58,677 nt of DNA from an uncultured Sandaracinaceae bacterium (GTDB taxonomy: Bacteria > Myxococcota_A > Polyangia > Polyangiales > JAFGIB01). Shown piece after piece: positions 13,895-43,730 of the stretch. The notes beneath the pieces were generated by a model that saw only the letters and a list, made by a program, of their open reading frames with translations, was not told the origin of the DNA and did not search any database. The stretch is from the NCBI GenBank assembly GCA_964450715.1, contig CAYVFC010000016.1, positions 1-58,677 of the forward strand, given 5' to 3'. Both the position numbers and the translations under genes were made by a program. Numbering within the stretch: position 1 is the stretch's first letter; each line of letters begins with the position of its first letter.

Positions 13895-13899
13895 CTACG

Positions 13900-14070: not shown

Positions 14071-14076
14071 ATTGGG

Positions 14077-14149: not shown

Positions 14150-14156
14150 ATCTTGG

Positions 14157-14225: not shown

Positions 14226-14226
14226 T

Positions 14227-14298: not shown

Positions 14299-14310
14299 GG
14301 CAACCCGCGG

Positions 14311-14384
14311 CGTCCCCGGAAGGAGTCGAACCTTCACGAAACCCGGCTTCGGAGACCGGCGCTCTTCCATTGAGCTACGAGGAC
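14311..14384 (-). tRNA. tRNA-Arg (anticodon CCG)
   Basis: Acceptor GTCCTCG/CGGGGAC, D-arm AGCTCAATGGAAGAGC, anticodon loop CTCCGAA, T-arm GAAGGTTCGACTCCTTC. Confidence 0.75.
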
Positions 14385-14409
14385 GAAAAGATACCTGACG
14401 CCTGCGCGG

Positions 14410-14482
14410 CACCCGCGGGGAGACTCGAACTCCCACCCTCCTGGTTCGTAGCCAGGCGCTCGTCCGCTTGAGCTTCGCGGGC
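14410..14482 (-). tRNA. tRNA-Arg (anticodon ACG)
   Basis: Acceptor GCCCGCG/CGCGGGT, D-arm GCTCAAGCGGACGAGC, anticodon stem CCTGG/CCAGG with loop CTACGAA, T-arm GGGAGTTCGAGTCTCCC. Confidence 0.75.
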
Positions 14483-14486
14483 ATGG

Positions 14487-14559
14487 CTCCCCCGACAGGA
14501 TTCGAACCTGCAAAGGCCGGCTTAGAAGACCGGTGCCCGTCCGATCGGGCTTCGGGGGC
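14487..14559 (-). tRNA. tRNA-Arg (anticodon TCT), CCA encoded
   Basis: Anticodon stem CCGGT/GCCGG with loop CTTCTAA, T-arm GCAGGTTCGAATCCTGT, acceptor ...CGGGGGA-G-CCA with a G1-A72 mismatch. Confidence 0.65.
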
Positions 14560-14587
14560 GACTTCCGTTAGGCGTACGTATCGACGG

Positions 14588-14658
14588 AGTGGCGGGAGGG
14601 AATCGAACCCTCGCATACCGGACTTGCAAACCGGTCCCTGCCCATTCGGATCCGCCAC
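14588..14658 (-). tRNA. tRNA-Cys (anticodon GCA)
   Basis: Acceptor GTGGCGG/CCGCCAC, anticodon loop TTGCAAG, T-arm GAGGGTTCGATTCCCTC. Confidence 0.6.
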
Positions 14659-14727
14659 GTAGCGGGCCCTGCCAGGCGGGAGCGTTTCAGGTCACACGGT
14701 CGTTATCCGTTGTACTCCCGCAAGGCA

Positions 14728-14799
14728 TAAGGCCCGGTGCGCCCGGCGGGATTCGAACCCGCTCCACCTGATTGGAAGCCAGGCGTGCTGCCTTGAACA
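14728..14799 (-). tRNA. tRNA-Gly (anticodon TCC)
   Basis: Acceptor GCGTCCG/CGGGCGC, anticodon stem CCTGG/TCAGG with loop CTTCCAA, T-arm GCGGGTTCGAATCCCGC. Confidence 0.7.
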
Positions 14800-14805
14800 C
14801 CTCGG

Positions 14806-14877
14806 ACGCAATTCGTGGAGCCGCGGGGAATCGAACCCCGGTCTTCCGCTTGCAAGGCGGATGCTCTCCCGGTTAAG
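14806..14877 (-). tRNA. tRNA-Ala (anticodon TGC)
   Basis: Acceptor GGGGCCG/CGGCTCC with the G3-U70 Ala identity pair, anticodon stem TCCGC/GCGGA with loop CTTGCAA, T-arm CGGGGTTCGATTCCCCG. Confidence 0.75.
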
Positions 14878-14886
14878 CGACGGCCC

Positions 14887-14958
14887 CTCTGGTCGGTAGG
14901 CCGGGCGCGAGTCGAACGCGCATCGGCCGCTTATAAGGCGACTGCTCTCTCCCTTGAG
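14887..14958 (-). tRNA. tRNA-Ile (anticodon TAT), unusual isoacceptor
   Basis: Acceptor GGGCCGG/CCGGCCT, D-arm GCTCAAGGGAGAGAGC, anticodon stem GTCGC/GCGGC with loop CTTATAA, T-arm GCGCGTTCGACTCGCGC. Confidence 0.6.
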
Positions 14959-14963
14959 CTACC

Positions 14964-15035
14964 GGCCCTTCGGTCCTCCCGGAAGGACTTGAACCTTCAT
15001 TTCCCGGTCATCAGCCGAGCGTCCTGGCCATTGGA
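14964..15035 (-). tRNA. tRNA-Ile (anticodon GAT)
   Basis: Acceptor CCTCCTG/CGGGAGG, anticodon stem CTCGG/CCGGG with loop CTGATGA, T-arm GAAGGTTCAAGTCCTTC. Confidence 0.7.
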
Positions 15036-15039
15036 CGAC

Positions 15040-15114
15040 AGGAGGGCGGGCTGGTCGGACGGACTCGAACCGACTTGCACCAGACTCACATTCTGGGCCC
15101 TCGACCACTTCGGG
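15040..15114 (-). tRNA. tRNA-His (anticodon GTG) with G-1
   Basis: 8-bp acceptor G-CTGGTCG/CGACCAG-C, anticodon stem CCAGA/TCTGG with loop ATGTGAG, T-arm GTCGGTTCGAGTCCGTC. Confidence 0.7.
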
Positions 15115-15159
15115 ATCGACCAGCATAGTCGTTCAGGCAGCGATACATCCCTCGACGGA

Positions 15160-15291
15160 TTCGCCTTGGTGTCACGGACCGGAATCGAACCGTTCGGCCG
15201 TCCCACGTCCGCTGCGCGGCCGTGAGTTTTTTGGACAGCCTCACCTCCTGGGTTTCAACCAGGCGCTCTTACCGTAGTGAGCTACCGTGAC
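15160..15291 (-). tRNA. tRNA-Phe (anticodon GAA) carrying a ~55-nt structured insertion between anticodon stem and T-stem
   Basis: Acceptor GTCACGG/CCGTGAC-A-CC, D-arm GCTCACTACGGTAAGAGC, anticodon stem CCTGG/CCAGG with loop TTGAAAC. A GC-rich insert GGTGAGGCTGTCC-A6-CTCACGGCCGCGCAGCGGACGTGGGACGGCC follows, then T-arm ACGGTTCGATTCCGGT. Confidence 0.6.
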
Positions 15292-15299
15292 GATGACGG

Positions 15300-15370
15300 C
15301 GCCACGTACGGGAATCGAACCCATCTCGACCGGTCGACAACCGGCTCGCATCCCAGATGCGCAACGTGGC
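15300..15370 (-). tRNA. tRNA-Asp (anticodon GTC)
   Basis: Acceptor GCCACGT/ACGTGGC-G, D-arm CGCATCTGGGATGCG, anticodon stem GCCGG/CCGGT with loop TTGTCGA, T-arm ATGGGTTCGATTCCCGT. Confidence 0.75.
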
Positions 15371-15420
15371 TTCATCACCCGCTCCTCCAAGACCCGGCAC
15401 GCCGTGGAGGAATCGACCGC

Positions 15421-15480
15421 CGTTGAAAACGTCCGGAGCGGAGTGGACGTCAGTCCACGGAGCTGGACGTTTTCAACGGT
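15421..15480 (-). repeat. conserved structured hairpin motif, copy 3 (inside a degenerate tRNA-like region, 15371-15555)
   Basis: gttgaaaacgtccGGAGCGGAGTGGACGTCAGTCCACGGAGCTggacgttttcaac, with a 13-bp outer stem. Flanked by a Trp-like anticodon hairpin (CTCCAAA) and a T-arm-like GGCGGTCGATTCCTCC. Confidence 0.6.
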
Positions 15481-15560
15481 GGCGACGGAGCGCGAAGCGC
15501 GGAGTCAACCCCCCGCGGTCGGGTTTGGAGCCCAACCTGCGCCCAGCGCCCGACGTCTAG

Positions 15561-15633
15561 CTCCGGAGGCAGGATTCGAACCTGCGGTTTGCCGGTTAAC
15601 AGCCGGCCGCCTTTCCGCTTGGCTACCCCGGAA
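15561..15633 (-). tRNA. tRNA-Asn (anticodon GTT)
   Basis: Acceptor TCCGGGG/CTCCGGA, D-arm GCCAAGCGGAAAGGC, anticodon stem GCCGG/CCGGC with loop CTGTTAA, T-arm CGCAGGTTCGAATCCTGC. Confidence 0.7.
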
Positions 15634-15714
15634 TAGTGTGCGGCGCCCGGTCGCCACTCCGGGCGCCCGCACGAAAGCCTTCTCGATTGTCAAAGAACAC
15701 GCTAGCTATGCCGG

Positions 15715-15785
15715 CTCGGGAGGAGGGATTCGAACCCCCGTCGACTTATCCAGAGTCAGTTGTCCTTCCGTTGGACGACTCCCGA
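15715..15785 (-). tRNA. non-canonical tRNA (anticodon uncertain, possibly GGA)
   Basis: Acceptor TCGGGAG/CTCCCGA, D-arm GTCCAACGGAAGGAC, T-arm GGGGGTTCGAATCCCTC. The anticodon arm is irregular (TGACT-CTGGATA-AGTCG). Confidence 0.45.
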
Positions 15786-15880
15786 ATGCTTCAAAGATCG
15801 CTCGAACAAATTTTCAAGAATCTAAACTCCGTTTTCAGGGTGCACTTCGCCGTCCGCCTTCAACGCGGTTGAAGGCGCAG

Positions 15881-15953
15881 TGGATCCGGTGGGCGTCGAA
15901 CCCACACGCGTCCGGTTAAGAGCCGGGTGCTCTGCCTGTTGAGCTACGGATCC
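15881..15953 (-). tRNA. tRNA-Lys (anticodon CTT)
   Basis: Acceptor GGATCCG/CGGATCC, D-arm GCTCAACAGGCAGAGC, anticodon loop CTCTTAA, T-arm GTGGGTTCGACGCCCAC. Confidence 0.7.
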
Positions 15954-15957
15954 GTTG

Positions 15958-16030
15958 TGGGGCCGGTGGGAATCGAACCCACAATCGTCCGGTTAAAAGC
16001 CGGCTGCTCTTCCTGTTGAGCTACGACCCC
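15958..16030 (-). tRNA. tRNA-Lys (anticodon TTT)
   Basis: Acceptor GGGGTCG/CGGCCCC, D-arm GCTCAACAGGAAGAGC, anticodon loop CTTTTAA, T-arm GTGGGTTCGATTCCCAC. Confidence 0.7.
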
Positions 16031-16096
16031 GTTGGGCGCAGCTCTCGTTTTTGTATGTGTAACTTCAATAACATAGCCTCCCTCCGTGTGACCTGG

Positions 16097-16179
16097 TGGG
16101 GCCGGCAGGATTCGAACCTGCATAGCGACCAGCGCGCCCGGTTTACAGCCGAGTTGGGATTCCTGCTCCCCTCGACCCC
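16097..16179 (-). tRNA. tRNA-Tyr (anticodon GTA), long variable arm, CCA encoded
   Basis: Acceptor GGGGTCG/CGGCCCC-A-CCA, D-stem GGGA/TCCC, anticodon stem CTCGG/CCGGG with loop CTGTAAA, 15-nt variable arm, T-arm GCAGGTTCGAATCCTGC. Confidence 0.7.
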
Positions 16180-30842: not shown

Positions 30843-31983
30843 CGACGGCTTGCGCGCCCAGAACCGCGCGCAACCTCGAGCGCCGAGCGGTTATGGCTGG
30901 CAGTGCGTTGTACCAGCTCCCGGTGCGAGAGCAACGCCGACACGCGGCGGATCTCGCTGGCCACCGTTGGTGGCGACCGATCCAGCCAGACTATCACCAC
31001 CTCGCGAAAGCGGTGCCAGGGCTCGATCGAGAAGCACTGCACGCAGGCCTGCGGTACCCGCTCGAGCGAATCCGGCGGGGCGTAGGACTGCTTCGATCGC
31101 GCCGCGCCGTATCCGAGCCGCTCGCTCTGTTCGTCGGCTTCACCCAGGAACGGCTCCGGGTCGGGGGTTCCCTCGCTCGAAGCCAGCGCGTCCAGTCGCG
31201 ACAGAAGCGCGGAATCCGAGAGCTCGGGGCGAAGCGCGTCGAGCATCCGGCGCACCCGCGGCCACTGCCGCGCGCGCAGCGCCCCCTGCAAAAACCACCA
31301 GCGCGCTCGCGCGCCCGCCACTCGCATCGCGCGCGGGTCCGGCGGCTGCCCGCGCACGGCCAGCCGCCTGTACCCGGACCGCTCGCAGAAGCGCAGCAAC
31401 CGCGCGCTCACCTCGGCGAGCCCCTGCTCCAGGTTCCGCTCCTCCACCAGAGAGCGGGCCTGATCCAGCGCATCGAGGGCGTCGAATACCTCGTCGAGGC
31501 TCTGGTTTTCCGCCGAGTCCCGGGCCGGTCCGCTCTGCAGCTCCTGCTGGACAACGGCGATCCGCGCGTCGAGCTATCCGATCACCGCCTCCAGGCGTGC
31601 CGCCTGTTTGGCCGCCGCCCGGCTCTGCTTCTGCAAGGCACAGAGCAACTCATCCAGCCAGGGCGGGCGAACTCCCGCGCAATACCCATCCGTATTCCCC
31701 TCGTCCGACTGCCCTGCCTCGGGGCGACGGCGGCCTGCAGGGCCGTTCGGCGGAAAAGTAGCGAAAAGCGAGCGCAGCCAGTCGAACATGCCGTGGCGCT
31801 ACCACGCTCCGGGCCGTTCGCTAAGTGTTTCGTAACCGTTCAGGGGGGGCCGAAAACTGGATGTCGTGTGGACCGACTCCGCGCTGCGCGACCTGAAACG
31901 GATCGAATCGAACAGCCCACAGTTCTTGAAGATCGCTTACACTGTACTGGATGCTCAAATGCTGCGTACGAGAGGAGAGGAAA

Positions 31984-34905
31984 ATGCAGGGGCTAATGGT
32001 TCGCCTGGGAGTCGTTGTAGGCGTCGTCATCGGGCTGGGCACCGAGGCGCAGGCGTCGGAGCTGGTGGGTGTGGAGGTGCTGGACCAGGACTTCCTGGTG
32101 GTGCAATTCCGAGACGGGGAGGTCATTCACGACGAGGTGGCTGTCGGCGATCTCAACGAGGTCGTCAACCGTTTTTTGCCGGAGCTCGATACCACGGCGG
32201 CGGCTAGCGCCTCGAGCTGGACCATCACCTCGAGCGATGACGGCAACTACGCCGGCGGGCAACAGCCCACCGGCCGCTTCCGGAAGAAGAAGCTCAACGG
32301 TCATGCCCAGCTCGGCTGGGTCAGCAACGACTTCGCGTACGAGTACACCTACGATCACTTTGTCTACTTGCAGCTGCCGAGCTCGATGCAGCCGGGCGCT
32401 ACCTACACGCTGACCATCGACGGGGCGACCCAGAGCGACGCTGCCTCGGCACAGGTGACCTTCGACCTCTTCAACAGCCGCTCGGAGGCGGTGCACGTCA
32501 ATCTGGTGGGCTACCTGACCGACGCCCCCCAGAAAGCCGCCGACCTCTATTACTGGATGGGGGACGGCGGTGCGCGGGACTACTCGAGCTTCGAAGGAAA
32601 CGAGGTCTTCGTCTACGACGTAGCGAACGGCACCTCCACTTCGGTGGGGACGGTAACCTATGGTGCCGCCAGCGCCAGCGAGGAGCACAACCACAACTAC
32701 ACCCGCTCTGCGGTCTGGCACGTCGATTTCTCGAGCGTCACCACGCCCGGCACTTATCGGCTGGCGGTGGAGGGAGTCGGCTGCAGTCAGGACTTCATCG
32801 TCGGCGACGATGCCTACCACGATCCCTTTCGGGTTTCCCTGCGGGGCTTCTTCTATATGCGCCTCGGCGATATGAACCCGAACAACGTCTCGCCCCCGCC
32901 GCGATCGCCGTCGTATATCCCGGGATCGGATCCGCCGGGCACCCGTGTGGTGCTCACCACCATGCACCCGTTTCATGCCGAGTGGGACAGCATGTCGTGC
33001 GGCGATTGCTGGGACGCTCCCGACCAGTGGGTGTCCTACGCGAAATCGGGCGAACCCACCAACCCCGACGCCTGGGGCGGCTACGCCGACGCCGCGGATC
33101 TGGACCGTCACCTCGGCCACGTGCCGATCATCTGGGATCTACTGCTCCCCTACATCGTGACCGCGGGCGCGATCGATGACGACGACCTGGGCATCGGAGA
33201 GAGCGGCAACGGTATCCCCGATCTCATCGACTCGGCAGCCTGGGAGACCGACTTCTGGCTGAGGCTGCGCGACCCCGATGACGGCAGCTACTCGCACGGT
33301 CTTACCAACCCGAACGACAGCGACACCATCTATCAGGCGGACGGCACCGCCATCTCGGCCTGGGCCAACGCGGTCAATGCCTCCATGCTGGCCGAGGCGT
33401 TTCGGATTGCGGGGCGGACGAGCGAGATGCAGACCTATCGCGACGCCGCCATCGAGGCCTACGACATCGCCGACGGCAGCGCGGAGCCGATGCTCGATGT
33501 CGATTCGGATCTCGGCAGTGCGCGCGGTCGCGACCTGAAGATGACCGCCGCGGCTTATCTCTTCAACGTGACTGGCGATACCGCCTACGAAGAGGTGGTC
33601 AACGCCGAGAGCCACTGCGCCGGCGATCCCGGTGGAGCTATCGCAGACGTGGGGAGCTTCAACCAGCTCTGGGCCACCGCCGCCTACCTGATGACGCCGC
33701 AAGCGGTGAGCTACCCCGCGCTCCAGGACAACATGCGAAGCGCCGTCATCGCCGAGGCAAAGAGCGTCGAGGCGGACAAGATGGGGACCCGGCCCAGCCG
33801 TCGCACCTCGGACGGCGAATCCCTGTGGTTCCAGACGGTCGTCGATGTGAATCGCAGCATCGTGGCCCACGCAGTGGCAGAGAGTCAGGCAGACCAGGAC
33901 TACCTGCTGCAAGCGCTCGCGCTAGAGGCGGACTGGACCCTCGGGCGCAACCCGCTGAACATCATCCAGATGTCGACGGCGTCGTCCGTACTGTCCTCGA
34001 AGCGCAACATGGACCAGATCTACTACCACGAGGGGTTGGAGGACGGCATTCCCGGCACCTACCCGGGGCTGACCCCCTACGTCAACCTGGCGCTCTGGGG
34101 TGGTTGCGGGATGGTCATGAGCTGTCCGCCGCGGCTGTACGAGAACGGCTACCCCGCGGACGCCGAGAACGTATGGCCCTTTGCCGAGGCCTATTTCCCT
34201 TCACCCTGGGTCTACGTACACACGGAGTTCACGCCGCAGCAGACCATGCGCGGCAAGACGGCGCTGTACGGCTACCTGCACGCTCTGGCCGGCGAAGGCG
34301 CGCAGAACCCGGATCCGGCTCTGAGCGTTACCAAGCAGGGGTCGGGTTCGGGAACCGTGAGCTCGTCACCGGCCGGGATAGATTGTGGAAGTGCCTGCAG
34401 CGCGGTCTTCCCGGCGGGCACGACGGTTACCTTATCCGCCACACCGGACAGCGACCACCTGTTCGATGGCTGGGGTGGGGCGTGCACGGGCACCGGTCCG
34501 ACCTGCACGGTAGACATGGCTACCGCGCCTCTGCTGGTGACAGCGACGTTCACGGATCCGAATACGGCGGATACCGGCGGTACGGGCGGTTCGGGAGGTT
34601 CGGGAGGCAGCGACCAGGGCGGTTCGGGAGGCAGCTACCCCGGCGGCTCCGGAGGCAGCTACCCCGGCGGCTCGGGGGGCTCGGGGGGCTCGGGGGGCAC
34701 AGATGGCCCTAGCGGCTCGGGCGGTGCAGGCGGTACGGGCGACACAAACGGTACGCACGACCCAGGCTCCGAGAATGGCTCTGGATGCGGTTGCTCGACC
34801 GCCCGACGGCGGAGCGCCAACCCGGCCGCGCTCCTCGGAGCATTGGCGTTGATGCTTCTTGGCCTGCGTCGCCGTGGGCATCGCTGGCGCGCCTCGACTG
34901 GTTAG
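31984..34905 (+). CDS. large secreted multi-domain protein with C-terminal beta-repeat, Gly/Ser-rich spacer and MYXO-CTERM sorting signal
   Basis: Signal peptide and a GAGAGGAGAGG RBS. About 700 aa of probable glycoside-hydrolase-like/helical catalytic region (family not assigned). A GSGSGTVSS...CGSAC...GTTVTLSATP B-repeat-like domain, GGSGGS repeats, then GCGCSTARRRSANPAALLGALALMLLGLRRRG. Confidence 0.8.
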   Translation: MQGLMVRLGVVVGVVIGLGTEAQASELVGVEVLDQDFLVVQFRDGEVIHDEVAVGDLNEVVNRFLPELDTTAAASASSWTITSSDDGNYAGGQQPTGRFRKKKLNGHAQLGWVSNDFAYEYTYDHFVYLQLPSSMQPGATYTLTIDGATQSDAASAQVTFDLFNSRSEAVHVNLVGYLTDAPQKAADLYYWMGDGGARDYSSFEGNEVFVYDVANGTSTSVGTVTYGAASASEEHNHNYTRSAVWHVDFSSVTTPGTYRLAVEGVGCSQDFIVGDDAYHDPFRVSLRGFFYMRLGDMNPNNVSPPPRSPSYIPGSDPPGTRVVLTTMHPFHAEWDSMSCGDCWDAPDQWVSYAKSGEPTNPDAWGGYADAADLDRHLGHVPIIWDLLLPYIVTAGAIDDDDLGIGESGNGIPDLIDSAAWETDFWLRLRDPDDGSYSHGLTNPNDSDTIYQADGTAISAWANAVNASMLAEAFRIAGRTSEMQTYRDAAIEAYDIADGSAEPMLDVDSDLGSARGRDLKMTAAAYLFNVTGDTAYEEVVNAESHCAGDPGGAIADVGSFNQLWATAAYLMTPQAVSYPALQDNMRSAVIAEAKSVEADKMGTRPSRRTSDGESLWFQTVVDVNRSIVAHAVAESQADQDYLLQALALEADWTLGRNPLNIIQMSTASSVLSSKRNMDQIYYHEGLEDGIPGTYPGLTPYVNLALWGGCGMVMSCPPRLYENGYPADAENVWPFAEAYFPSPWVYVHTEFTPQQTMRGKTALYGYLHALAGEGAQNPDPALSVTKQGSGSGTVSSSPAGIDCGSACSAVFPAGTTVTLSATPDSDHLFDGWGGACTGTGPTCTVDMATAPLLVTATFTDPNTADTGGTGGSGGSGGSDQGGSGGSYPGGSGGSYPGGSGGSGGSGGTDGPSGSGGAGGTGDTNGTHDPGSENGSGCGCSTARRRSANPAALLGALALMLLGLRRRGHRWRASTG

Positions 34906-34920
34906 ATTCGGAGGTGAATC

Positions 34921-35922
34921 TTGCAGAAACCGTTTCATCAGAAATTGATCACCTGGATTGGTTGGCTGCTCACAGGGGTGGTGACGGTCGGTACTTTTCT
35001 CGACGCGGTCGGTAACGTTTTAGGCCTCATCACTAGACCGGTTACCTATCTTGCGACTGCAACTATATGGCTGAGTTGGATATTCGCCCAGGTGTTGTTA
35101 AGAAACCGACCCATCGATTGGATTACCTCTGATGGCTTGCGAATTCACATTAAACGGTTGGGAGTCGGCTCAACGTTGCCGCTCGCTGGCGCAACGATGT
35201 TGCTGTGGGTTCCGGTACTCAGTGCTCCTAAACTTTCACTAACTTGTCCTAAAACTATCGATATGAACGTGGCTACAATCGCTGGAACAGCACCACCAAG
35301 TTCGCGCATAGCGCTTTATATTCGCCCTATCGACGGTTCTTCTGAGTATTGGCTCGAGGGAAATGGTAAGATCACCGTTAGTAAAGACGGTAAATGGAGG
35401 CACCTCACGAGGTTCGGTAATCCCTATGGTATCGGGCATAAAGTCCCATGGCCAGCATTCGATGTTTACGCAGTCGCACTGGAAGGCTCGGCGTCGCCGC
35501 CCAGTGAGAAGGAATTTTCACCAAATGCGAGGGCAGTGCACTGTAGCGTAAAGCGTGAACCCGAGCCTGCCATTGCCTGTAAAGCTCAGATGCTAAACAT
35601 TCTATCGCCCCAACCGCTCTCTTGCCCGTTCGCGGCACAAATTCTAGTAGATCCGAGCTGCGATCCTCAGGAAATTGCTACGGTACGTTCACCAGTCGTC
35701 TTTGCCTGGAAGCCTGAAATCGAAGTGTTCGCAGAGCTATACCGTGATGGTCGCCCCGTAACTTCGCTGCCGAAGCAATTCGATGGCAAATTCGGTAGCG
35801 GTAATCCCTTGGAAAGTGGCCTCGCTGTTCCGCTCCGACCCGGTGAGTATCAGTTCAAAATTGCGAAGCACAAGGGCGCACCTTGCAAGACCTCTAGTTG
35901 GTTTCGTGTTGTAAGTCGTTAA
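34921..35922 (+). CDS. hypothetical membrane-anchored protein (low-GC gene)
   Basis: 333-aa ORF with an N-terminal hydrophobic region. Codon usage and GC (about 50%) differ sharply from the neighbours. Start codon uncertain. Confidence 0.45.
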   Translation: MQKPFHQKLITWIGWLLTGVVTVGTFLDAVGNVLGLITRPVTYLATATIWLSWIFAQVLLRNRPIDWITSDGLRIHIKRLGVGSTLPLAGATMLLWVPVLSAPKLSLTCPKTIDMNVATIAGTAPPSSRIALYIRPIDGSSEYWLEGNGKITVSKDGKWRHLTRFGNPYGIGHKVPWPAFDVYAVALEGSASPPSEKEFSPNARAVHCSVKREPEPAIACKAQMLNILSPQPLSCPFAAQILVDPSCDPQEIATVRSPVVFAWKPEIEVFAELYRDGRPVTSLPKQFDGKFGSGNPLESGLAVPLRPGEYQFKIAKHKGAPCKTSSWFRVVSR

Positions 35923-36009
35923 ATTGTATAGGGGCCCATTTGTTCTCCCTATCGGTAGGCTGAACTCGTGCCGGTGCGTCGGCCACCATCGGTACCGTAG
36001 CGCCCGGGG

Positions 36010-36100
36010 AATACAGGTAGCCCCCGGGTCAAGACCCCCCGCGGCGTCCTCACGGCCAGGGTGCAAAACGGTGGAGGGGTTGCCGGCGGGCGGGGTTAAT
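36010..36100. repeat. conserved ~90-nt intergenic element, copy 1
   Basis: (gtagcc)cccgggtcaagacc.cccgcggcgtcct.ac.gccagggtgcaaaacgg.ggaggggtt...ggcgggcggggttaat is about 90% identical to 42230-42320. Confidence 0.6.
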
Positions 36101-36405
36101 GTGGGTGTGTCCCACTTGGTCAATCGGGTTGGCGGCGCCTTGCGACAACGGCTCAGAAAGGGGTGCCGTAAGACGCCGGCGAACGAGCTGGCACCGCGGG
36201 CCGGTCGGAACGGCGCCTGGCCTCGCTCTGGGCGAGGCGCGGCGCGCCGTTCTCTCCCGACCCTGGCTCCGACACACGTTCTACCTCCCCTCATCTAGAC
36301 AACACGTGCCCGGTCATCTAACCTCGGATGGTGAAATCTAGCTTTGTTTAACCTAAAAGCGTGGCGCCCGATCCGCAGGCCACATACACACAAGGAGTGA
36401 ACTCC

Positions 36406-37122
36406 ATGAGCGTAACAAATACTTTGGCACTAGCATTTATGGCCTCAATGCTGTTTGCGAGTACTGCTTTTGCGCAGGGATCGGGAGTTAATGAAGGGGG
36501 AGTGAATCCCGAGCTTGGCGATGACTCCGTCGCCCAGGAGCCCGAAACCGGTTACGGCCAACAGCCGCCTTCTTCTTCACAAGAGGCGATGCCCGGGCCC
36601 GGGGCAGGGCTAGGACCGATTAGTGTTGGATTACTGCTGGGTTACGGAACCGATTTCGAAGACGCAGACCTCAATATCATGGGTTTTGGTTTTGGACTGC
36701 GCGGCGGTTACACGCTGGATATCGGAGTCTACGTAGGGGCGAAGTTCGTCTACTTTCTTGGTGGGTCTGTGGAGGAAGACATTCCTATGGTTGGCACGAT
36801 GGAAATGTCTTACAACGTCATGATGCTGAGTCTGGAAGGCGGTTACGACATCGATGTAGAGCCGATAATCATCCGTCCCTCGCTCGATCTCGGTCTCGCC
36901 ATAACCGGATACGAAGCAACTAGCCCGGCGATGGCCGGCCTACCGGCGCAAACGGAGGACGACACTTCCACAGATTTCCTACTCGGCTTAGGCGCTTCAG
37001 TGCTCTATCCCATCGAAGCCTGGTTTGTGGGCGGCGATCTTCGGTTGTATATGGTCCTGGGCGAAGACGACTTCGGTTACGAGGGTTTCTCACTATTGGC
37101 GAACGGCGGCTACACCTTCTAG
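36406..37122 (+). CDS. outer-membrane beta-barrel protein (OmpA/OmpW-like porin family)
   Basis: Signal peptide ending AFAQG, alternating amphipathic beta-strands, and a C-terminal aromatic residue (GYTF). AAGGAG RBS before ATG 36406. Confidence 0.7.
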   Translation: MSVTNTLALAFMASMLFASTAFAQGSGVNEGGVNPELGDDSVAQEPETGYGQQPPSSSQEAMPGPGAGLGPISVGLLLGYGTDFEDADLNIMGFGFGLRGGYTLDIGVYVGAKFVYFLGGSVEEDIPMVGTMEMSYNVMMLSLEGGYDIDVEPIIIRPSLDLGLAITGYEATSPAMAGLPAQTEDDTSTDFLLGLGASVLYPIEAWFVGGDLRLYMVLGEDDFGYEGFSLLANGGYTF

Positions 37123-37452
37123 AGCACCGAAGGTAAAAGAGCTTTTTTGTCCGTCCCGGCTGACGCCTTTCAGAAAGGCCTCGCGGGCGCGGTAGCTAGA
37201 GCGCACCAGCGGGGCGGAGGCCACGTACTCGAAACCCATCTTCAGGCCCGCCTCGCGATACCCGTCGAACACGGCGGGCTCGACATAGCGCTCGACCTCG
37301 GCGTGCTTCGCCGACGGCCTCAGATACTGGCCGACGGTCAAGATATCTACCCCGGCTTCCCGGAGCGCCTCCATCGCCGCATACACCTCCTCATCGCTCT
37401 CGCCGCACCCTACCATCAACAGGGATTGTCGAGGTGCGAGCATGAAGTCCAT
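37093..37452 (-). pseudogene. lipA: lipoyl synthase C-terminal fragment (truncated lipA)
   Basis: LMVGCGESDEEVYAAMEALREAGVDILTVGQYLRPS...RYVEPAVFDGYREAGLKMGFEYVASAPLVRSSYRA matches the last 110 or so residues of LipA. The radical-SAM N-terminal two-thirds is absent, and upstream DNA is replaced by an unrelated plus-strand gene. Confidence 0.7.
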
Positions 37453-37553
37453 TATTGACCGAGTAGCGCGGGCGTCGGTTCTCAGGGGGCGTGCAGCCGG
37501 GGTTATGCTCTAGAGCAAGAAAAGCGACAGACCGTAGAGCAAGGAGACCGAGC

Positions 37554-38585
37554 ATGGATCAGAAAGGCTTGCGCTTCATACCGGCGCCGCTTTTGCGGGT
37601 GCGTCGTTTTCTCGATCAACAGGGACGGATGCGGGTCAAACCGTGGGCTACTGTCGAGGAGACCCTGGACGCATTTCACGACGCCTTGCTCGACAACCGC
37701 GACAACGATGCGTTCTGGCAAGGACTGCAATCGCTGCTCGCGGTCCTCACGGCAGACACGCGAAAACGCATGTCGGCGGACGCCGGTAAGATCATCGACA
37801 ACCAGAGCCTCGACCCCGAGCGCAACCGCCTGCTTTTACTCGAGATCAGGCGGGCGCTGGCCGGCCGGCAGAAGCGCGGCGGCGGCTTCCGCCTGCTGAC
37901 GGCGGTGCTTTCGGTGCCGGCGCTCGGCCTGCTGCTGATGCTGGGCGGCGTGGCGAGCCTCGGTTGCTACACGACCCAGGAAGCCGGAAACCTCGACGGC
38001 GCGGGAACCGGTGGGTATGGCGGGCAAGCGGGGTCCGCCGGTTCAGCCTGGAACCAGGCGGGCGCGGGCGGTCCCGCCGCTGCCGGAAGCGCCGGCTCCA
38101 CCGCGGGAGCACCCGATGCGTCGATACCGGGCGCGGGCGGTCAAGGCGTTGCCGGAAAAGCCGGCTCCACCGCGGGAACACCCGATGCGTCGATGGCGGG
38201 CGCGGGCGGCGGCACCGGCCTCGGCGACGGTGGCGCCGAGGCCGGAACCGCACCGCCTCCTGTCGATGCCGGATGCAGCAAGCAGCAATGGGCCATGGAG
38301 GAGATCGTCGAGCTCTGCCTGGCCGATCCCGAAGACCGCGCGCGGGTCCTCTCCTGCCTGGACGCGCTGCACCAGTCGTGGCGGACAGGGCTCGAGGAGC
38401 TTTTTCGTTGCACCGACTGCGGTGTCATCCGCGATCAGCTCGAGTGCCTGGTTCCCGGCGTGGGTTCCTCCGCCTACCCCGCCGAGGATTTCTGCTCGAA
38501 CCCGGAAGCGGCCGGCGAATACGATCCGGATACTCTATTTAAAAACTGTCTTATTCCCATTTACCTCGGCGTCCGTTTCGAATGA
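37554..38585 (+). CDS. membrane-anchored protein: cytoplasmic N-domain, one TM helix, Gly/Ala-rich linker, Cys-rich C-terminal domain
   Basis: AAGGAGA RBS and ATG 37554. TM LLTAVLSVPALGLLLMLGGVASLGC. A (GAGG/AGSAGSTAG) low-complexity region. A C-terminal domain of about 100 aa with 7 Cys. Architecture resembles anti-sigma factors. Confidence 0.55.
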   Translation: MDQKGLRFIPAPLLRVRRFLDQQGRMRVKPWATVEETLDAFHDALLDNRDNDAFWQGLQSLLAVLTADTRKRMSADAGKIIDNQSLDPERNRLLLLEIRRALAGRQKRGGGFRLLTAVLSVPALGLLLMLGGVASLGCYTTQEAGNLDGAGTGGYGGQAGSAGSAWNQAGAGGPAAAGSAGSTAGAPDASIPGAGGQGVAGKAGSTAGTPDASMAGAGGGTGLGDGGAEAGTAPPPVDAGCSKQQWAMEEIVELCLADPEDRARVLSCLDALHQSWRTGLEELFRCTDCGVIRDQLECLVPGVGSSAYPAEDFCSNPEAAGEYDPDTLFKNCLIPIYLGVRFE

Positions 38586-38619
38586 GCGGGCCTTCCCGTG
38601 CGAATGAAGGCCCCTTCCC

Positions 38620-39747
38620 GTGACGAAGAACGGATCGCCAAAACGCTCTCACCCTCTTGACCGGATAGAACGCAGGCCCACGACCTGCATCTGGGAAATC
38701 ACCCGCGCCTGCAATCTTCGCTGCGTACATTGCGAGAACCGGAGCGGCGTCAGGAGCGAGCAGGAGCTCTCGCCAGCGGAACTGATGGCCGTGGCAGAAA
38801 GCCTGGCCCGTCTCGGGTGCCAGACCGTGGACCTGACCGGGGGCGAACCCCTGCTGCGCCCCGACTGGGACGCTCTGTGCCGAGGATTGCGCGCTCTCGG
38901 ATTACAGGTGGCCCTGATCACGAACGGCACTCTTTTGAGCGACGAAAACCTGGATCGCGCCGTCGCCGCCGGGGTCGGTGTGCTCGGCGTATCCCTGGAC
39001 GGGATGCTAGATACACACGACGCCACGCGCCTTCGCCCGTGCCCCGGGCCCTCGCCCTGGGAACAGACGGTATCGGGGATCGAGCGCGCCCTGGGCCGGG
39101 TGACGACCAGGGTCATCACCCAGGTCAACCGCAACAACCTGCGCGATCTCCCTCGGCTCCGCCTCTTCTTGCGAGATCTCGGGGTGCGCCGCTGGCAGTT
39201 ACAACTTGCCGTCCCAACCGGCTGGCTGCTCGATCTCGACGTTCCGTACATTATAGGTCCCGAAGATCTGGAGGAGCTTACCGGGTTCATCGCCGGCGCG
39301 ATCGCCGAGGGTGGGGAACCCGCCATCGATACCGGCGATACCATCGGGTATTACACGGACCGGGAGCTGGTCTTGCGCAAGCGGACTTCCGGTCAGGGTC
39401 TGTGGCTCGGATGCCAGGCGGGAATCCGGGTGGTGGCGATCACCTACGACGGCAAGGTGCGGGGGTGCTCCGCGCTGCCGCGCGGGTTCGACGCCGGCGA
39501 CTTGCGACAGGAATCGCTCGAGGAGATCTGGAGCGACCCGGAGCGGTTCGCCTATTGCACGCGGTTCGATCCTCGCAGGCTTCTGGGTGCGTGCGCCCGT
39601 TGCAGGTTCGGGGCGCTGTGCAGGGCGGGGTGTACCTCGATGGCCTACTGGGTCACGGGCACCATATATCGTAATCCCTATTGCCTCCTACAGCAGAGAG
39701 AACGCTTGCAGACGAGCCCGGGCGTCGTCGAAGGTTGCCGTCCATGA
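38620..39747 (+). CDS. radical SAM/SPASM-domain protein
   Basis: CNLRCVHC is a CxxxCxxC radical-SAM cluster motif. A C-terminal Cys-rich SPASM-like region (CARCRFGALCRAGC...C). GTG start. Confidence 0.8.
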   Translation: MTKNGSPKRSHPLDRIERRPTTCIWEITRACNLRCVHCENRSGVRSEQELSPAELMAVAESLARLGCQTVDLTGGEPLLRPDWDALCRGLRALGLQVALITNGTLLSDENLDRAVAAGVGVLGVSLDGMLDTHDATRLRPCPGPSPWEQTVSGIERALGRVTTRVITQVNRNNLRDLPRLRLFLRDLGVRRWQLQLAVPTGWLLDLDVPYIIGPEDLEELTGFIAGAIAEGGEPAIDTGDTIGYYTDRELVLRKRTSGQGLWLGCQAGIRVVAITYDGKVRGCSALPRGFDAGDLRQESLEEIWSDPERFAYCTRFDPRRLLGACARCRFGALCRAGCTSMAYWVTGTIYRNPYCLLQQRERLQTSPGVVEGCRP

Positions 39748-40781
39748 GCCCGCCGATCCGACTGCAGGCCGCCGGTCTCGAGATAACGCTCGCCTGTCCG
39801 TACCGTTGCCAGACCTGCGGCTCGAACGCGGGAGCACCCAGGTCGAGCGAGCTGCGCACGGACGAATGGCTGGCGGTAATACATGATCTAGCCGGCCTCG
39901 GGTGCGCGCGCGTCGCCCTGCTCGGCGGCGAGCCGCTGCTGCGCTCGGACTGGATCGTACTGGCCCGGGAGGCCATCGAGAACGGCTTGGAAGTCGAGCT
40001 CATCACCTCCGGCATGGGGGTTGATGTCGAAATGGCCCGACGGATAGCCGAGCTCGGCCTGGCATCGGTCACGGTCAGCGTGGACGGAACCCGGCAAGTG
40101 CACGACAGGCAGCGGGACAAGGATGGAAGCTACGACCGGGCGCTTTCTGCCATCGAGCTTCTCGAGCGGAGCGGAATGCGCGTGGGCGTTACCACCCAGG
40201 TTAACCGGGAGACGCTGCACACGCTGGAGGTACTGGCTCCCGAGCTGGAAGCGGCGGGCGCTATGGGATGGCAACTACAGCTCACCATGCCCGCAGGGCG
40301 AGCGCGGCTGCGCACGGATCTGGTCTTGGCCCCCGACGCCATGCCCGAATTGCACGGGATAGCTCGAAGACTCATTGCGCGCCGCGGCCTGCGCCCGGTT
40401 CTCACCGACAACATCGGCTACTTCACTTCGGACGAGCCCCTCCTGCGGACCCCGGGCAGGCAAGCCGAAAGGTGCTGGCTCGGTTGCTTCGCAGGGCTTC
40501 GCAACCTCGGCATCCTCAGCGACGGCTCGGTCAAGGGTTGCCTGGCGCTTCCCGATTCGATGATCGAGGGCAACGTGCGCGAGCGATCTCTCGCCTCCAT
40601 CTGGAACGACCCCGGCTGCTTCGCCTACAGTCGTTCCTTTCGCCCCGAAACCCTGGGCGGAGCCTGCGCCGAGTGCGCCTTCGCAAGACTGTGTCGCGGC
40701 GGTTGCACCGCATTCGCCCTGGCTGTTCACTCGCAACCCGGGGTAAGCACCCATTGCTTCCGATTGCACGGCGTCTGCTGA
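39744..40781 (+). CDS. radical SAM/SPASM-domain protein (tandem paralogue)
   Basis: ATG 39744 overlaps the upstream stop (ATGA). CPYRCQTC cluster motif, and a C-terminal CAECAFARLCRGGC...C SPASM-like region. Confidence 0.8.
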   Translation: MSPPIRLQAAGLEITLACPYRCQTCGSNAGAPRSSELRTDEWLAVIHDLAGLGCARVALLGGEPLLRSDWIVLAREAIENGLEVELITSGMGVDVEMARRIAELGLASVTVSVDGTRQVHDRQRDKDGSYDRALSAIELLERSGMRVGVTTQVNRETLHTLEVLAPELEAAGAMGWQLQLTMPAGRARLRTDLVLAPDAMPELHGIARRLIARRGLRPVLTDNIGYFTSDEPLLRTPGRQAERCWLGCFAGLRNLGILSDGSVKGCLALPDSMIEGNVRERSLASIWNDPGCFAYSRSFRPETLGGACAECAFARLCRGGCTAFALAVHSQPGVSTHCFRLHGVC

Positions 40782-40993
40782 GACAACTGCAATAATCAGC
40801 CACGGGCCCGTAGCTGGCGGAAGCGTCGCATTACCGACGACCGAGCGGGAGGCGGACCGGTGCCGACGGGTTCGGGCAGGTCGTTGTGAGAGCAAGCCAG
40901 CCGGAAAACAGGCTCAGCGTAGTGCGGTGTAGCGCGGCGTGGCGCGGCGTGGCGTGGCGCGAGCGACGAGGCGAGATCTCGCCGAACGCGGCG

Positions 40994-41965
40994 TTAGCTT
41001 TCGCCCAGCGCGGAACAGATTCTCTGCGCTTCTGCGGTCATCTCGGTCAGAATCTCGCGGACCGGTTTGACCTCGTGGATGAGGCCGATTGCCTGCGAGC
41101 AGGAGATGCTCCCCTTGTTGATGTCGCCGGTCTCGTACATCTCCCGAGCGGCCTCGCCCGAGACGTAGGGATAGATCTCACCGATGTCGCCGCCCTTGCC
41201 GGCCGCCTCGAGCTCTTGCACCTTCTTGGAGGGCGGGTTGAGCCAGACCCGGTGGGGAAAGTTGACCGGGCGCATGATGATATCGGTGTCCAGCTCGGTG
41301 GCTTCGAGCAGGGCCTTCTTGAGGTTGTCGTGGATGGGGCACTCCTCGGAGAGCATGATTCGGGTTCCCACGATGACCCCCGAGGCCCCGAGGGCAAATG
41401 CGGCAGCCATCGACCGGCCGTCGACGATGCCGCCGCCACCGATCACGGGAATATCGAGCGCGTCGACCGCAGACGGAATCAGCACGATCGTGCCGATGTT
41501 GAGGTTGCCGGTCGCGCCGCCGTTTTCGTAGCCGACAACGGTGACCGCGTCGGCCCCCATCTTCTCGGCTTTCCTCGCGTAGCGGACGCCGACGCACTTG
41601 TGGAGCCAGACCATGCCGAGCTCTTTGATGCGGGCGATCAGGTCCGCGGGGGGAGAGAAACCGGAGGTTTCGACGATCCTGACGCCCTCTTCGGCCATGA
41701 TCTCCAGGTAGCGCAGGTTGTCCAGCTTACGCATCATGGGAAAGAGGTTGATGTTGACTCCAAAGGGTTTCCGGGTGCCGCCCTTGACCGCTTTCAGATC
41801 GTTGCGGAACTCGCCTTCGTCCTGGTAGATCGCCGAAGCGATGAGCCCGAGGGCCCCTGCCTCCGAGATGGCCGTCACAAAAGGGGCTTTCGAGATGTCC
41901 ATCATGGTCCCCCCGATGATGGGGAGCTCGATCCCGAGAAGGCTGGTTAGCTTGGAGCTGAGCAC
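40994..41965 (-). CDS. nitronate monooxygenase / FabK-like FMN-dependent enoyl reductase family protein
   Basis: NMO/2-nitropropane dioxygenase fold motifs (GGTMMDISKAPFVTAISEAGALGLI, VIGGGGIVDGR, GASGVIVGTR). Confidence 0.75.
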   Translation of the reverse strand: MLSSKLTSLLGIELPIIGGTMMDISKAPFVTAISEAGALGLIASAIYQDEGEFRNDLKAVKGGTRKPFGVNINLFPMMRKLDNLRYLEIMAEEGVRIVETSGFSPPADLIARIKELGMVWLHKCVGVRYARKAEKMGADAVTVVGYENGGATGNLNIGTIVLIPSAVDALDIPVIGGGGIVDGRSMAAAFALGASGVIVGTRIMLSEECPIHDNLKKALLEATELDTDIIMRPVNFPHRVWLNPPSKKVQELEAAGKGGDIGEIYPYVSGEAAREMYETGDINKGSISCSQAIGLIHEVKPVREILTEMTAEAQRICSALGES

Positions 41966-42229
41966 GCGTACCTCCGGCTAGCTGGCGTATGGGGGCTGCA
42001 CCGCGCGGGGCGGCCTCCGATCTGGGTTATCGCGCAAAACCAAGGGCCAGTCAAAGCGCTCCGGCGCGCAAAAGGGGCCATCCCGGACCGCGTTTCCCGA
42101 GCACCTACCGCCCCTTCGTTCCCGCGATTCGCCGTCATCGCCGGAGACGAGATGGCCGGCTTTTCGGGCGTCTGCCGGTGAAATGGTCGCGGTCAGCCGG
42201 GCCTACCTGTCGACGCCCACGCTGGTGGG

Positions 42230-42320
42230 CTATACAGTAGCCTCCGGGTCAAGACCTCCCGCGGCGTCCTTACAGCCAGGGTGCAAAACGGCGGAGGGGT
42301 TATTGGCGGGCGGGGTTAAT
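42230..42320. repeat. conserved ~90-nt intergenic element, copy 2
   Basis: See copy 1. Located between the nitronate monooxygenase start and the MFS transporter stop. Confidence 0.6.
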
Positions 42321-42443
42321 AGCGGTACCTAGAGCGCCGAACGGGTTGAAAACGCCATGATTTAGCGGTCTATCCTCGCGAACTTAAAGACGTTTTATAA
42401 TTGTTGGCACTCCCTTGTGGAGAGAGCCGGCCAACGCGAACGG

Positions 42444-43730
42444 CTACCGATTCCTGTCGATCATCGTCCACAACACCAGGGTGAGCGCGGTGCCTACCAC
42501 CGCCACCGCGACCAGCAGGACGAAGATCGGCGTCAGTGCCTGGTCGTACCGCTCGTACATCCAGCCGATAATCTGCTCCTGAAAAATGGGACCGATGGAT
42601 CCTGTGCCGTTGATGATCCCCGCCGCGGCCAGCGCGCCTCGCTTTGATCCGACGTCGATGGCGGCCACTCCGGACAAGAGCGAATCCGGGCCGTAGAGCA
42701 TGAAGCCGGTCAGGCCCATGCAGAGCGTGAAAGCGAACAGGCTGGAGGCGCCGAACGCGACCATACCGCCGAAAGCCAGCGTCATGACGACCAGCATGGC
42801 AAAGCAGAGAAACGCTCTTCTGCCCCTGAACAGCCTATCGCTGGCAAAACCGGCAAAGATCACACCGGTAAAACCCGAGATGTCGAACACGGTCGATAGA
42901 TAACCGGCCTGATCGCCCTGCAGCTCGAAGTTACCGGCCAGGAAATAGGGCGTCCAGCTCCAGAGCGCGTAACGCAGAAACTTGATGGTGAAGTAGATGA
43001 CGCCTATCAGCACGATGGCGGCCACCACCTCGCGGCTCCAGTTCAGGCCTTTATCGTTTTCACCGTCGGCCGTGCCGTCAGGATCGGCGCCGTCGTCGTC
43101 GTCCTGGTCCTGCAGCTCGGGAAGACCGACGTCCGCGGGGCGACCCGGGTGCAACAACAGCACCGCGAACCAGACGCAGAGCAGCACCAGCGAAGCGCCG
43201 AAAAACGACCAGCGCCACCCGGCCAGGCCTAGCAGATAGGCGGCAAAGGAGGTGGCCAGCACCGAGCCCAGCTGGTAGCAGGTGGACCAGACGCCCAGGA
43301 TCGAACCGCGCTGCCTGCGCTTGAACCAGAAGGCCAACGAGCCGATACAACCCGGCCAACCCGTACCCTGGGCCAAGCCGTTGAGCGCCAGAAAAAGCGC
43401 CACGGTCCATACACCGTTGGAGATGCCGAACACGACATTGCACCCGAGCGAGATGCCCATGCCCACCAGCAGCAGCATTTTGGAGCCGAGCCGGTTGCCG
43501 AAGTAGCTGCTCGAGTACTGTCCGACCATGTAAGCCGCCAGATAGGCGGTACCCAGGTGGGCCAGATCGACGGCATTCAGATCAAATGCCAGCGACAGAT
43601 CGCGTTTGACGACGTAAAACGCCTTTCGGCAGAAGTAGTAGCCGGCGTAGGCCAGCCAGGTAGCGGTGAAGATCTTGATCTGCCATGGGCGGTATTCGCT
43701 GTCTGCACTCCCGGTATTTGTGTTTGCCAT
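42444..43730 (-). CDS. MFS transporter, organophosphate:phosphate antiporter (GlpT/UhpC-like) family
   Basis: 12 predicted TM helices, and an N-terminal WQIKIFTATWLAYAGYYFCRKAF typical of the OPA family. Confidence 0.75.
   Translation of the reverse strand: MANTNTGSADSEYRPWQIKIFTATWLAYAGYYFCRKAFYVVKRDLSLAFDLNAVDLAHLGTAYLAAYMVGQYSSSYFGNRLGSKMLLLVGMGISLGCNVVFGISNGVWTVALFLALNGLAQGTGWPGCIGSLAFWFKRRQRGSILGVWSTCYQLGSVLATSFAAYLLGLAGWRWSFFGASLVLLCVWFAVLLLHPGRPADVGLPELQDQDDDDGADPDGTADGENDKGLNWSREVVAAIVLIGVIYFTIKFLRYALWSWTPYFLAGNFELQGDQAGYLSTVFDISGFTGVIFAGFASDRLFRGRRAFLCFAMLVVMTLAFGGMVAFGASSLFAFTLCMGLTGFMLYGPDSLLSGVAAIDVGSKRGALAAAGIINGTGSIGPIFQEQIIGWMYERYDQALTPIFVLLVAVAVVGTALTLVLWTMIDRNR

Follow-up and report, generated by a model that had tools for sequence, protein, structure and literature searches.

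A conserved metagenomic cassette of a membrane protein and two radical SAM/SPASM enzymes beside a lipA remnant, with the membrane protein as candidate substrate

Introduction

Protein modification by radical S-adenosylmethionine (rSAM) enzymes ahead of export is exemplified by the anSME/sulfatase and QhpD/QhpC pairs, in which an rSAM/SPASM enzyme without a RiPP recognition element (RRE; RiPP, peptide made on ribosomes and then post-translationally modified) modifies a protein destined for the periplasm while that protein is still in the cytoplasm. In quinohemoprotein amine dehydrogenase, QhpC is the small Cys-rich subunit. Among peptide systems, precursors of the Nif11 and NHLP types have unusually long, protein-like leaders, and bufferins are modified in the cytoplasm and then brought to the periplasm by housekeeping export, giving a Cys-rich product. 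Bufferins are described as MNIO-modified RiPPs carrying Sec signal peptides (PMC11626156). In the HXS antiphage system, two rSAM enzymes that lack a signal peptide, HxsB and HxsC, mature the signal-peptide protein HxsA, which undergoes N-terminal processing and has its site of action in the periplasm (PMC13128918). The locus described in this work is a gene for a membrane protein followed by genes for two rSAM/SPASM enzymes, rSAM-A and rSAM-B (together, the trio), in contig CAYVFC010000016.1 of an uncultured Sandaracinaceae bacterium; the whole stretch of 58,677 nucleotides is referred to as the window.

A previous reading of this DNA, made from its letters and open reading frames (ORFs) alone (the sequence-only reading), had described three plus-strand genes beside a stub of lipA, and the coordinates, motifs and Pfam thresholds obtained here agree with that description (Table 1). 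Its general idea, an uncharacterised rSAM maturation of the upstream protein, is the best-supported interpretation of the sequence evidence. The membrane protein appears to be by far the best substrate candidate for the rSAM pair, and we lean, by a small measure, towards its being modified by the pair in the cytoplasm before export, so that the product of the trio would probably be a chemically modified cell-envelope protein.

Conservation of the family and linkage to the rSAM pair

A word-indexed search with the membrane protein returned six homologues, a small number that probably reflects saturation of the candidate list by the low-complexity linker of the protein. The homologue contigs show the order membrane gene, rSAM-A, rSAM-B, with 4-nucleotide overlaps; in all, this order is seen for seven close homologues and in four distinct contexts, with ExoD and TPR genes (L002), with acyltransferase and LTD genes (L003), with a Mur ligase gene (L006/L007) and, in the window, with the lipA stub and an NMO gene. 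An HMMER profile search enlarged the family to at least 259 cluster representatives (clusters at 50% identity) with E ≤ 1e-3, 152 of which reach E ≤ 1e-10, all of the same architecture. No above-threshold Pfam or NCBIfam match was obtained for any of the family members tested, and a contig scan of 185,579 species representatives contained no member. To date, metagenome and metagenome-assembled genome (MAG) data are the only source of this family, and, being without a Pfam or NCBIfam model, it would be missed by annotation and by RiPP-mining tools that look for short precursors.

Beyond the main clade, to which the window belongs, two sister clades were recognised, one named here after the sequence YKGVSFP and one after its acidic tails. 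A metagenome scan seeded with the YKGVSFP clade yielded 22 loci, and those with enough downstream DNA (L011, L016, L023, L025, L026 and L030) all carry orthologues of A and then B. Tandem membrane genes occur in L025 (two) and in L032, and a second copy in L016 sits before rSAM-B. In the acidic-tail clade, two to three tandem family genes stand beside a convergent operon that encodes an rSAM/SPASM enzyme, an alkaline phosphatase (AP)-superfamily enzyme and an rSAM enzyme. Linkage to the rSAM pair is seen in all three clades amid unrelated flanks; of the contigs that extend far enough to either side, a single orphan locus (L036/L037) is without the pair. The trio is a conserved, widespread metagenomic module whose linkage is strict and ancient. 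In the broad sense, the family shows the traits of a RiPP precursor: an N-terminal domain kept across three clades with different tails, tandem copies and strict enzyme linkage.

Domain organization of the membrane protein

The N-domain, which is cytoplasmic, is the most conserved part of the protein, with near-invariant residues R17, F19, P30, W31, F54, W55 and L61 in the alignments. In the AlphaFold2 (AF2) model its predicted local distance difference test (pLDDT) values are ~86-98 over most of residues 11-110 and fall to ~69 at residues 71-90. Searches of Pfam and NCBIfam gave nothing consistent or above threshold for this domain, and no fold match was found in the PDB.

The following hydrophobic segment is modelled by AF2 as a helix at residues 111-135, with positive charges (RQKRGGGFR) on its N-terminal side in a positive-inside distribution. 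Its closing Cys, C138, is invariant in the alignments, and a [..][AGS]C sequence directly follows the helix in 113 of the 117 full-length family members on which the architecture counts are based. Residues 111-138 are proposed to act as an internal signal-anchor or as a lipoprotein-type signal. Cleavage and acylation of the lipobox type are putative: the motif is seen at residue ~138, behind a folded domain, whereas a classical signal peptidase II substrate has its lipobox, [LVI][ASTVI][GAS]C, where an N-terminal signal peptide ends, with the Cys within ~35 residues of the start. The linker that follows varies in length across the family, and in the window it holds a 69-bp tandem duplication (38059-38127 and 38128-38196, 87% identical), which accounts for the 343 residues of this member against 258-305 in close relatives.

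The C-terminal domain had been credited with seven Cys in the sequence-only reading; the count has to be corrected to eight (C241, C255, C268, C286, C289, C298, C314 and C332), with C138 at the end of the helix as the ninth Cys of the protein. The domain is a helical unit of ~95 residues with the conserved core L-x-C-x-x-A-L-x-x-S-W-x-x-G-L-x-x-L-F, and a homologous domain is present in the YKGVSFP clade. Eight Cys in so short a span, with four of them (C255, C268, C289 and C314) hardly varying within the main clade, suggest as a rival explanation that the SPASM pair installs thioether cross-links of the sacti-, ranthi- or QhpC type in this domain; SPASM enzymes often make thioethers, and the SCIFF, PapB and StsB models match the two enzymes weakly. 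We consider this improbable. Among the 96 members carrying the tail motif, 90 have an even number of Cys beyond the helix (0, 2, 4, 6, 8 and so on), a signature of disulfide pairs in an exported domain that speaks against singly used thioether Cys. The Y-x-G-V tail is kept even in three members that lack Cys in this part altogether and in eight that have just two, and the Cys domain is confidently predicted as a helical fold rather than as a peptide-like core. An extracytoplasmic location and disulfide bonds are predicted for the domain. One half of the earlier proposal, the upstream membrane protein as substrate candidate, gains from the linkage in all three clades; its other half, cross-linking of the Cys by thioethers, is disfavoured by the even counts.

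The protein ends in a disordered tail. A Y-x-G-[VIL] sequence lies 6-13 residues from the C-terminus in ~101 of the 117 members, and we infer that this tail, rather than the cysteines, is the favoured site of modification.

With its single transmembrane helix between a cytoplasmic and an outer domain, the protein also recalls an anti-sigma factor. This candidate was rejected, with no sigma factor conserved nearby and no match to an anti-sigma family.

Upstream of the trio, the promoter scan detected no consensus and the terminator scan was likewise uninformative; an Rfam scan of 34500-43500 gave no match.

Table 1. Positions of the lipA remnant, of the trio and its parts, and of the PF00884 genes linked to related cassettes. 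Positions refer to the sequence named in the second column.
Feature	Sequence	Position	Strand	Remarks
lipA remnant, 119-aa ORF	Window	37093..37452	minus	LipA homology 37186-37434; presumed pseudogene
Upstream untranslated region of trio	Window	37453..37553	plus	Shine-Dalgarno AAGGAGA at 37541-37547
Membrane protein, 343 aa	Window	37554-38585	plus	Start ATG 37554
N-domain, residues 1-112	Window	37554..37889	plus	Conserved cytoplasmic helical domain (alignments and AF2)
Hydrophobic helix, residues 111-138	Window	37884..37967	plus	Ends A-S-L-G-C138, lipobox-like (hydropathy and motif scan)
Linker, residues 139-240	Window	37968..38273	plus	Gly/Ala-rich, disordered, AF2 pLDDT <50
Helical 8-Cys domain, residues 241-336	Window	38274..38561	plus	AF2 pLDDT ~90
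C-terminal tail, residues 337-343 (Y-L-G-V-R-F-E) and stop	Window	38562..38585	plus	Disordered, AF2 pLDDT <50
22-bp imperfect tandem duplication of stop/start junction	Window	38579..38622	plus	CGAATGA..CTTCCCGTG, two copies
rSAM-A, 375 aa	Window	38620-39747	plus	Radical SAM/SPASM; PF04055 89 bits, PF13186 35 bits
rSAM-A CX3CX2C	Window	38710-38733
rSAM-A CX2CX5CX3C	Window	39592-39633
rSAM-B, 345 aa	Window	39744-40781	plus	Radical SAM/SPASM; Pfam Radical_SAM and SPASM
rSAM-B CX3CX2C	Window	39795-39818
rSAM-B CX2CX5CX3C	Window	40665-40706
PF00884 gene	L011	8119-9342
PF00884 gene	L016	7846-9072
PF00884 gene	L023	6216-7475
PF00884 gene	L025	10375-11637
PF00884 gene	L034	10557-11816	minus	Alkaline-phosphatase superfamily

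The two radical SAM/SPASM enzymes

Both enzymes are complete and score above the Pfam thresholds of Radical_SAM and SPASM (PF04055 and PF13186). They are cytoplasmic paralogues, ~40% identical, and their coding regions share the sequence ATGA, in which the ATG of rSAM-B runs into the stop codon of rSAM-A. The CX3CX2C motif reads CNLRCVHC in rSAM-A (residues 31-38) and CPYRCQTC in rSAM-B (residues 18-25), the SPASM motifs are CARCRFGALCRAGC and CAECAFARLCRGGC, respectively, and these cluster motifs are kept in every orthologue. Since the rSAM domain begins no more than ~20 residues from the N-terminus in both, neither has an RRE domain. In the close clade, orthologues share 66-71% identity with rSAM-A and 61-65% with rSAM-B; for the YKGVSFP clade the values are 44-47% and 46-48%, respectively.

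No NCBIfam model reaches its cut-off for either enzyme, which bears out the earlier view of an uncharacterised cassette of the rSAM/SPASM maturation type. The best match of rSAM-A is TIGR03913 (219 bits against a cut-off of 591.75) and that of rSAM-B is TIGR04103 (252 bits against 725); across the two enzymes the scores range over 210-219 and 202-252 bits, respectively, and both of these nearest curated families are peptide maturases. Models of the PqqE, MftC, NirJ/AhbD (115-146 bits) and SCIFF types score far below them, and PapB and StsB models match weakly. Among solved structures, BlsE, SkfB, PqqE and SuiB are the nearest by sequence (E-values 1e-9 to 1e-17). Models of HxsB and HxsC are not among the best 25 of the 69-72 NCBIfam matches per window enzyme, PADLOC returned only generic matches of the viperin type, and no relevant literature was found on lipobox together with SPASM, on the TIGR accessions or on the GDL motif.

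The same scores bear on a housekeeping role for the pair, either as anSME-type maturases of a sulfatase or as PqqE/MftC-type cofactor enzymes. Weak matches to all three models exist, and a PF00884 gene is linked to the cassette in the sister clades (see below). The scores, however, are 43 bits at best against 349 for anSME (TIGR03942), 72-93 against 381 for PqqE and 104-114 against 265 for MftC, the window has no sulfatase homologue, and neither pqqABCD nor mftAB occurs among the ORFs called beside the trio. Together with the properties of the linked enzyme, these values make such a role extremely unlikely.

Proposed maturation of the membrane protein

If the membrane protein is the substrate, its maturation can be pictured in four steps. 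The N-domain would first serve as a leader or docking domain that keeps the precursor in the cytoplasm. rSAM-A and rSAM-B would then each add one radical modification to the still-unfolded C-terminal part, more likely at the aromatic tail Y-x-G-V-x-F (IYLGVRFE in the window) than at the cysteines. In a third step the protein would be exported via Sec through its internal signal, and the Cys domain would finally oxidise to disulfides; should the G-C be a true lipobox, Lgt and LspA would at this stage acylate C138 and cut off the N-domain, and the product would be a modified lipoprotein of the envelope. Near the trio, no dedicated protease, transporter, small fourth gene or sigma factor is conserved, and the absence of the first two fits the use of housekeeping export machinery. 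Tandem copies are common for RiPP precursors; those of this family, with their clade-specific tails, look like precursors and not like scaffolds.

Several points weigh against this proposal. The modification, its site and even the assignment of the membrane protein as substrate are deduced from gene linkage. A signal at residue ~113 could be inserted co-translationally, leaving the C-terminal part out of reach of enzymes in the cytoplasm, and the lipobox-like motif lies far from the N-terminus, unlike in classical lipoprotein signals, so that cleavage there is putative. The acidic-tail clade lacks Y-x-G-V-x-F and still has the rSAM pair, so that the target either differs by clade or lies outside the tail. 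Another possible target is the N-domain, which contains invariant Trp residues. The orphan member, which belongs to the acidic-tail clade (L036 8001-8714; L037 4021-4734), lies between two Ser/Thr protein kinase genes, with no rSAM gene within 8 kb.

In its most specific form, the proposal would make the family a new class of rSAM-matured pro-lipoproteins, with a folded leader, an internal lipoprotein signal, a cross-link or cofactor formed on the tail, and export and leader removal by Sec, Lgt and LspA. We regard this version as tentative and as less likely than not. If true, the product could be an envelope-anchored effector, for example in defence, metal binding or redox reactions; HxsA, which acts in phage DNA entry, may be compared. 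With the membrane protein as substrate in any form, the trio would represent a new design of rSAM precursor, in which a large folded leader is combined with an internal export or lipoprotein signal and no dedicated protease or transporter, and the conserved aromatic tail may carry a radical modification of a new kind. As a compact set of three genes, it is directly testable by co-expression and mass spectrometry.

Sister clades and the alkaline phosphatase-superfamily enzyme

In both sister clades the cassette includes a gene matching PF00884 ('Sulfatase'; Table 1). The tails of the acidic-tail clade, as the name says, are acidic, and they end in His. The Sulfatase domain begins at residue 3 of the PF00884 proteins, which are therefore without a signal peptide and cytoplasmic. 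At the site of the sulfatase C/S-x-P-x-R motif they carry T-[LV]-P-[AS]-[LI]...L-T-G, in which Thr replaces the Cys or Ser; within the AP superfamily, phosphotransferases and phosphodiesterases typically use Thr as the nucleophile. No formylglycine motif was found in the linked PF00884 proteins, and no AP-superfamily or sulfatase gene occurs in the window or in its close relatives. An anSME gene placed next to a sulfatase, which the sequence-only reading had named as an arrangement that would refute its proposal, is not what these loci contain: the sister-clade proteins lack C/S-x-P-x-R, and the anSME score of the rSAM enzymes stays far under its cut-off. We take the AP-superfamily protein for an enzyme with an accessory, tailoring role in some clades and not for the substrate. 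As a Thr-type enzyme, it would assist the maturation in the sister clades if the pro-lipoprotein form of the proposal holds, a role that we put forward with equal reserve.

The linked enzyme also enters a different explanation, in which the membrane protein is a scaffold or regulator and the rSAM pair acts on a small molecule, on a lipid or tetrapyrrole-like compound, or on another protein. The resemblance of both enzymes to tetrapyrrole enzymes of the AhbD/NirJ type would fit, as would the best-conserved part of the membrane protein being its cytoplasmic domain, and the conserved cytoplasmic PF00884 enzyme, with its Thr at the nucleophile position, is a possible target in the sister clades. 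We judge this explanation unlikely: an AP-superfamily gene is missing from the window clade, where the trio therefore occurs by itself; the AhbD/NirJ scores are far under cut-off and below those of the peptide maturases; and the extra tandem membrane genes with tails that differ between clades look precursor-like. Modification of the membrane protein itself remains the reading that we prefer.

Further genes accompany some of these cassettes. L023 and L025 also carry a gene for a type I phosphodiesterase (PF01663). The acidic-tail cassette is adjoined by a conserved block (L034 and L035, 497-7378, minus strand; also in a JGI contig of 229 kb) that encodes two T2SSE-type ATPases, one of them with fused HEAT repeats, a low-molecular-weight phosphatase and an Rce1-like protease, and that contains two further genes without assigned function. 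Rce1-like proteins are membrane proteases of the CAAX type. The block could be functionally linked to the cassette.

The junction between the membrane gene and rSAM-A

In the window, 34 nucleotides separate the membrane gene from rSAM-A. The direct repeat ccttcccgtg that the sequence-only reading had noticed there does exist; it belongs to a larger repeat, in which 22 bp at the stop/start junction are imperfectly duplicated in tandem and the copies (38579-38600 and 38601-38622) agree at 18 of 22 positions. This duplication accounts both for the spacer and for an ORF of 18 codons (38604-38660) that extends, in another frame, into the beginning of rSAM-A. The ORF had been suggested as an example of a short, unannotated gene for the true precursor peptide, and it is indeed present in the spacer before rSAM-A. 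As the product of a local duplication it is nevertheless a poor candidate: the membrane gene and rSAM-A overlap by 4 nucleotides in L002, L003 and L006, which leaves no room for it in the homologous loci. The intergenic spaces around the trio measure 48-118 nucleotides in these three loci. The small ORFs of the three intergenic regions pointed out as places to look have no homologue in any related locus, and none of those near the trio is conserved there; the GDL-motif peptide itself was not searched for by motif. A short-ORF precursor is, on these grounds, close to refuted.

The lipA remnant

That lipA is truncated to its C-terminal part, as first noted from the sequence, is confirmed by profile and similarity searches alike. 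The match to TIGR00510 is confined to profile positions 210-300 of 302 (111.5 bits against a cut-off of 310.25), and NCBIfam lipA models as a group cover only positions ~193-300, with 105-115 bits against cut-offs of 203-310. With the E. coli LipA sequence as tblastn query, the sole match corresponds to LipA residues 229-311 of 321 (for its position see Table 1), and tblastn detected no other LipA segment in the whole 58.7 kb of the window. In LipA numbering, the ORF begins near residue 220. Compared with E. coli LipA, the C-terminal 83-90 residues are 52% identical and retain the RSSY motif, whereas about two thirds of the protein are gone, including both the radical SAM CX3CX2C motif and the N-terminal CX4CX5C motif of the auxiliary cluster. 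Lacking both Fe-S cluster motifs, the remnant cannot be a functional LipA. It is presumed from these features to be a dead 3' gene fragment, unrelated to the three-gene operon beside it and, as a gene remnant, of minor interest.

An assembly artefact is an alternative explanation of the truncation, given a metagenome sequence without a close relative for a synteny check. Logan contig L008 (SRR14802574, 10.9 kb), however, reproduces window positions 31313-42220 at 100% identity and crosses the lipA junction, and because it was built separately, misassembly, a possibility that the sequence-only reading had itself raised, is very improbable. Nor does the composition change abruptly at the precise point of the junction. 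Window positions 38235-40543 are matched by a second contig, from SRR30905122. The cassette may have replaced the 5' part of lipA, with its rSAM half, as the sequence-only reading proposed. The closest relatives of the fragment in the scan of species representatives share 53-57% identity with it (a SAR324 MAG and a Pseudomonadota MAG), and a repeat search found neither terminal repeats nor insertion scars at the edges of the cassette.

Other features of the window

A direct repeat of ~90 nucleotides occurs in two copies in the window (36012-36100 and 42232-42320, 90% identical), with a stable, hairpin-rich predicted fold and no Rfam match. The copies bracket 6.2 kb, in which the trio and the lipA stub are accompanied by an outer-membrane protein (OMP) gene and an NMO/FabK-like gene. 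They could mark the boundaries of an island, in which no integrase was seen, or could be a repeated intergenic RNA element. The OMP gene, for a beta-barrel protein (36361-37122), converges on the lipA stub with an overlap of 30 bp. The GC content of 34750-37250 is 51-57%, against 62-72% around it; this patch includes a gene for a 333-aa protein without family match (34921-35922), ~440 bp without a convincing ORF (35923-36360) and the OMP gene.

Positions 31951-34905 (plus strand) encode a secreted, glycoside-hydrolase-like protein of 984 residues (Pfam CelD_N and Flg_new_2), the C-terminal tail of which (GCGCS...hydrophobic...RRR) resembles a MYXO-CTERM sorting signal, a likeness that points to a host of the Myxococcota type. 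Further away, 25 tRNA genes with many different anticodons, among them two for tRNA-Met, three for tRNA-Arg and three for tRNA-Leu, are packed on the minus strand within ~5.8 kb (10429-16179).

Comparison with known systems

By name, the model TIGR04133 ('rSAM_w_lipo') implies a pairing of an rSAM/SPASM enzyme with a lipoprotein, and the window enzymes match it with 127-143 bits. These scores are below its cut-off of 425, and the model describes one rSAM enzyme rather than two, beside a different lipoprotein family; the membrane protein of the trio has no NCBIfam match.

The nearest curated families, at 219-252 bits, are the rSAM enzymes of Nif11-class/NHLP-leader peptides (TIGR04103) and of GDL motif peptides (TIGR03913). 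The window enzymes score about a third of the respective cut-offs and do not have the C-terminal extension of these families, matching positions ~3-355 of 412-477. No Nif11 or NHLP match was found in the N-domain, and none of the Nif11 type in the neighbouring genes. Unlike Nif11 and NHLP systems, the trio has neither a GG cleavage site nor a PCAT transporter, and its precursor bears a transmembrane/lipobox segment.

Modification in the cytoplasm ahead of export would place the trio near anSME/sulfatase and QhpD/QhpC, from which it differs in having no formylglycine motif and no qhp genes, with even Cys counts that argue against QhpC-like thioethers. With bufferins it would share, as proposed here, an export signal on the precursor and a Cys-rich product; the bufferin enzyme is of the MNIO/DUF692 family and not an rSAM enzyme, and the bufferin signal peptide is N-terminal, without a folded cytoplasmic domain.

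Compared with HxsA, the membrane protein of the trio is without His-x-Ser repeats, a peptidoglycan-binding domain or an HxsD partner, and its signal is internal, behind a folded domain of 110 residues. What the two systems would have in common is the central arrangement, in which two rSAM enzymes jointly mature a signal-bearing protein rather than a short peptide, as described for HxsA and proposed for the trio.

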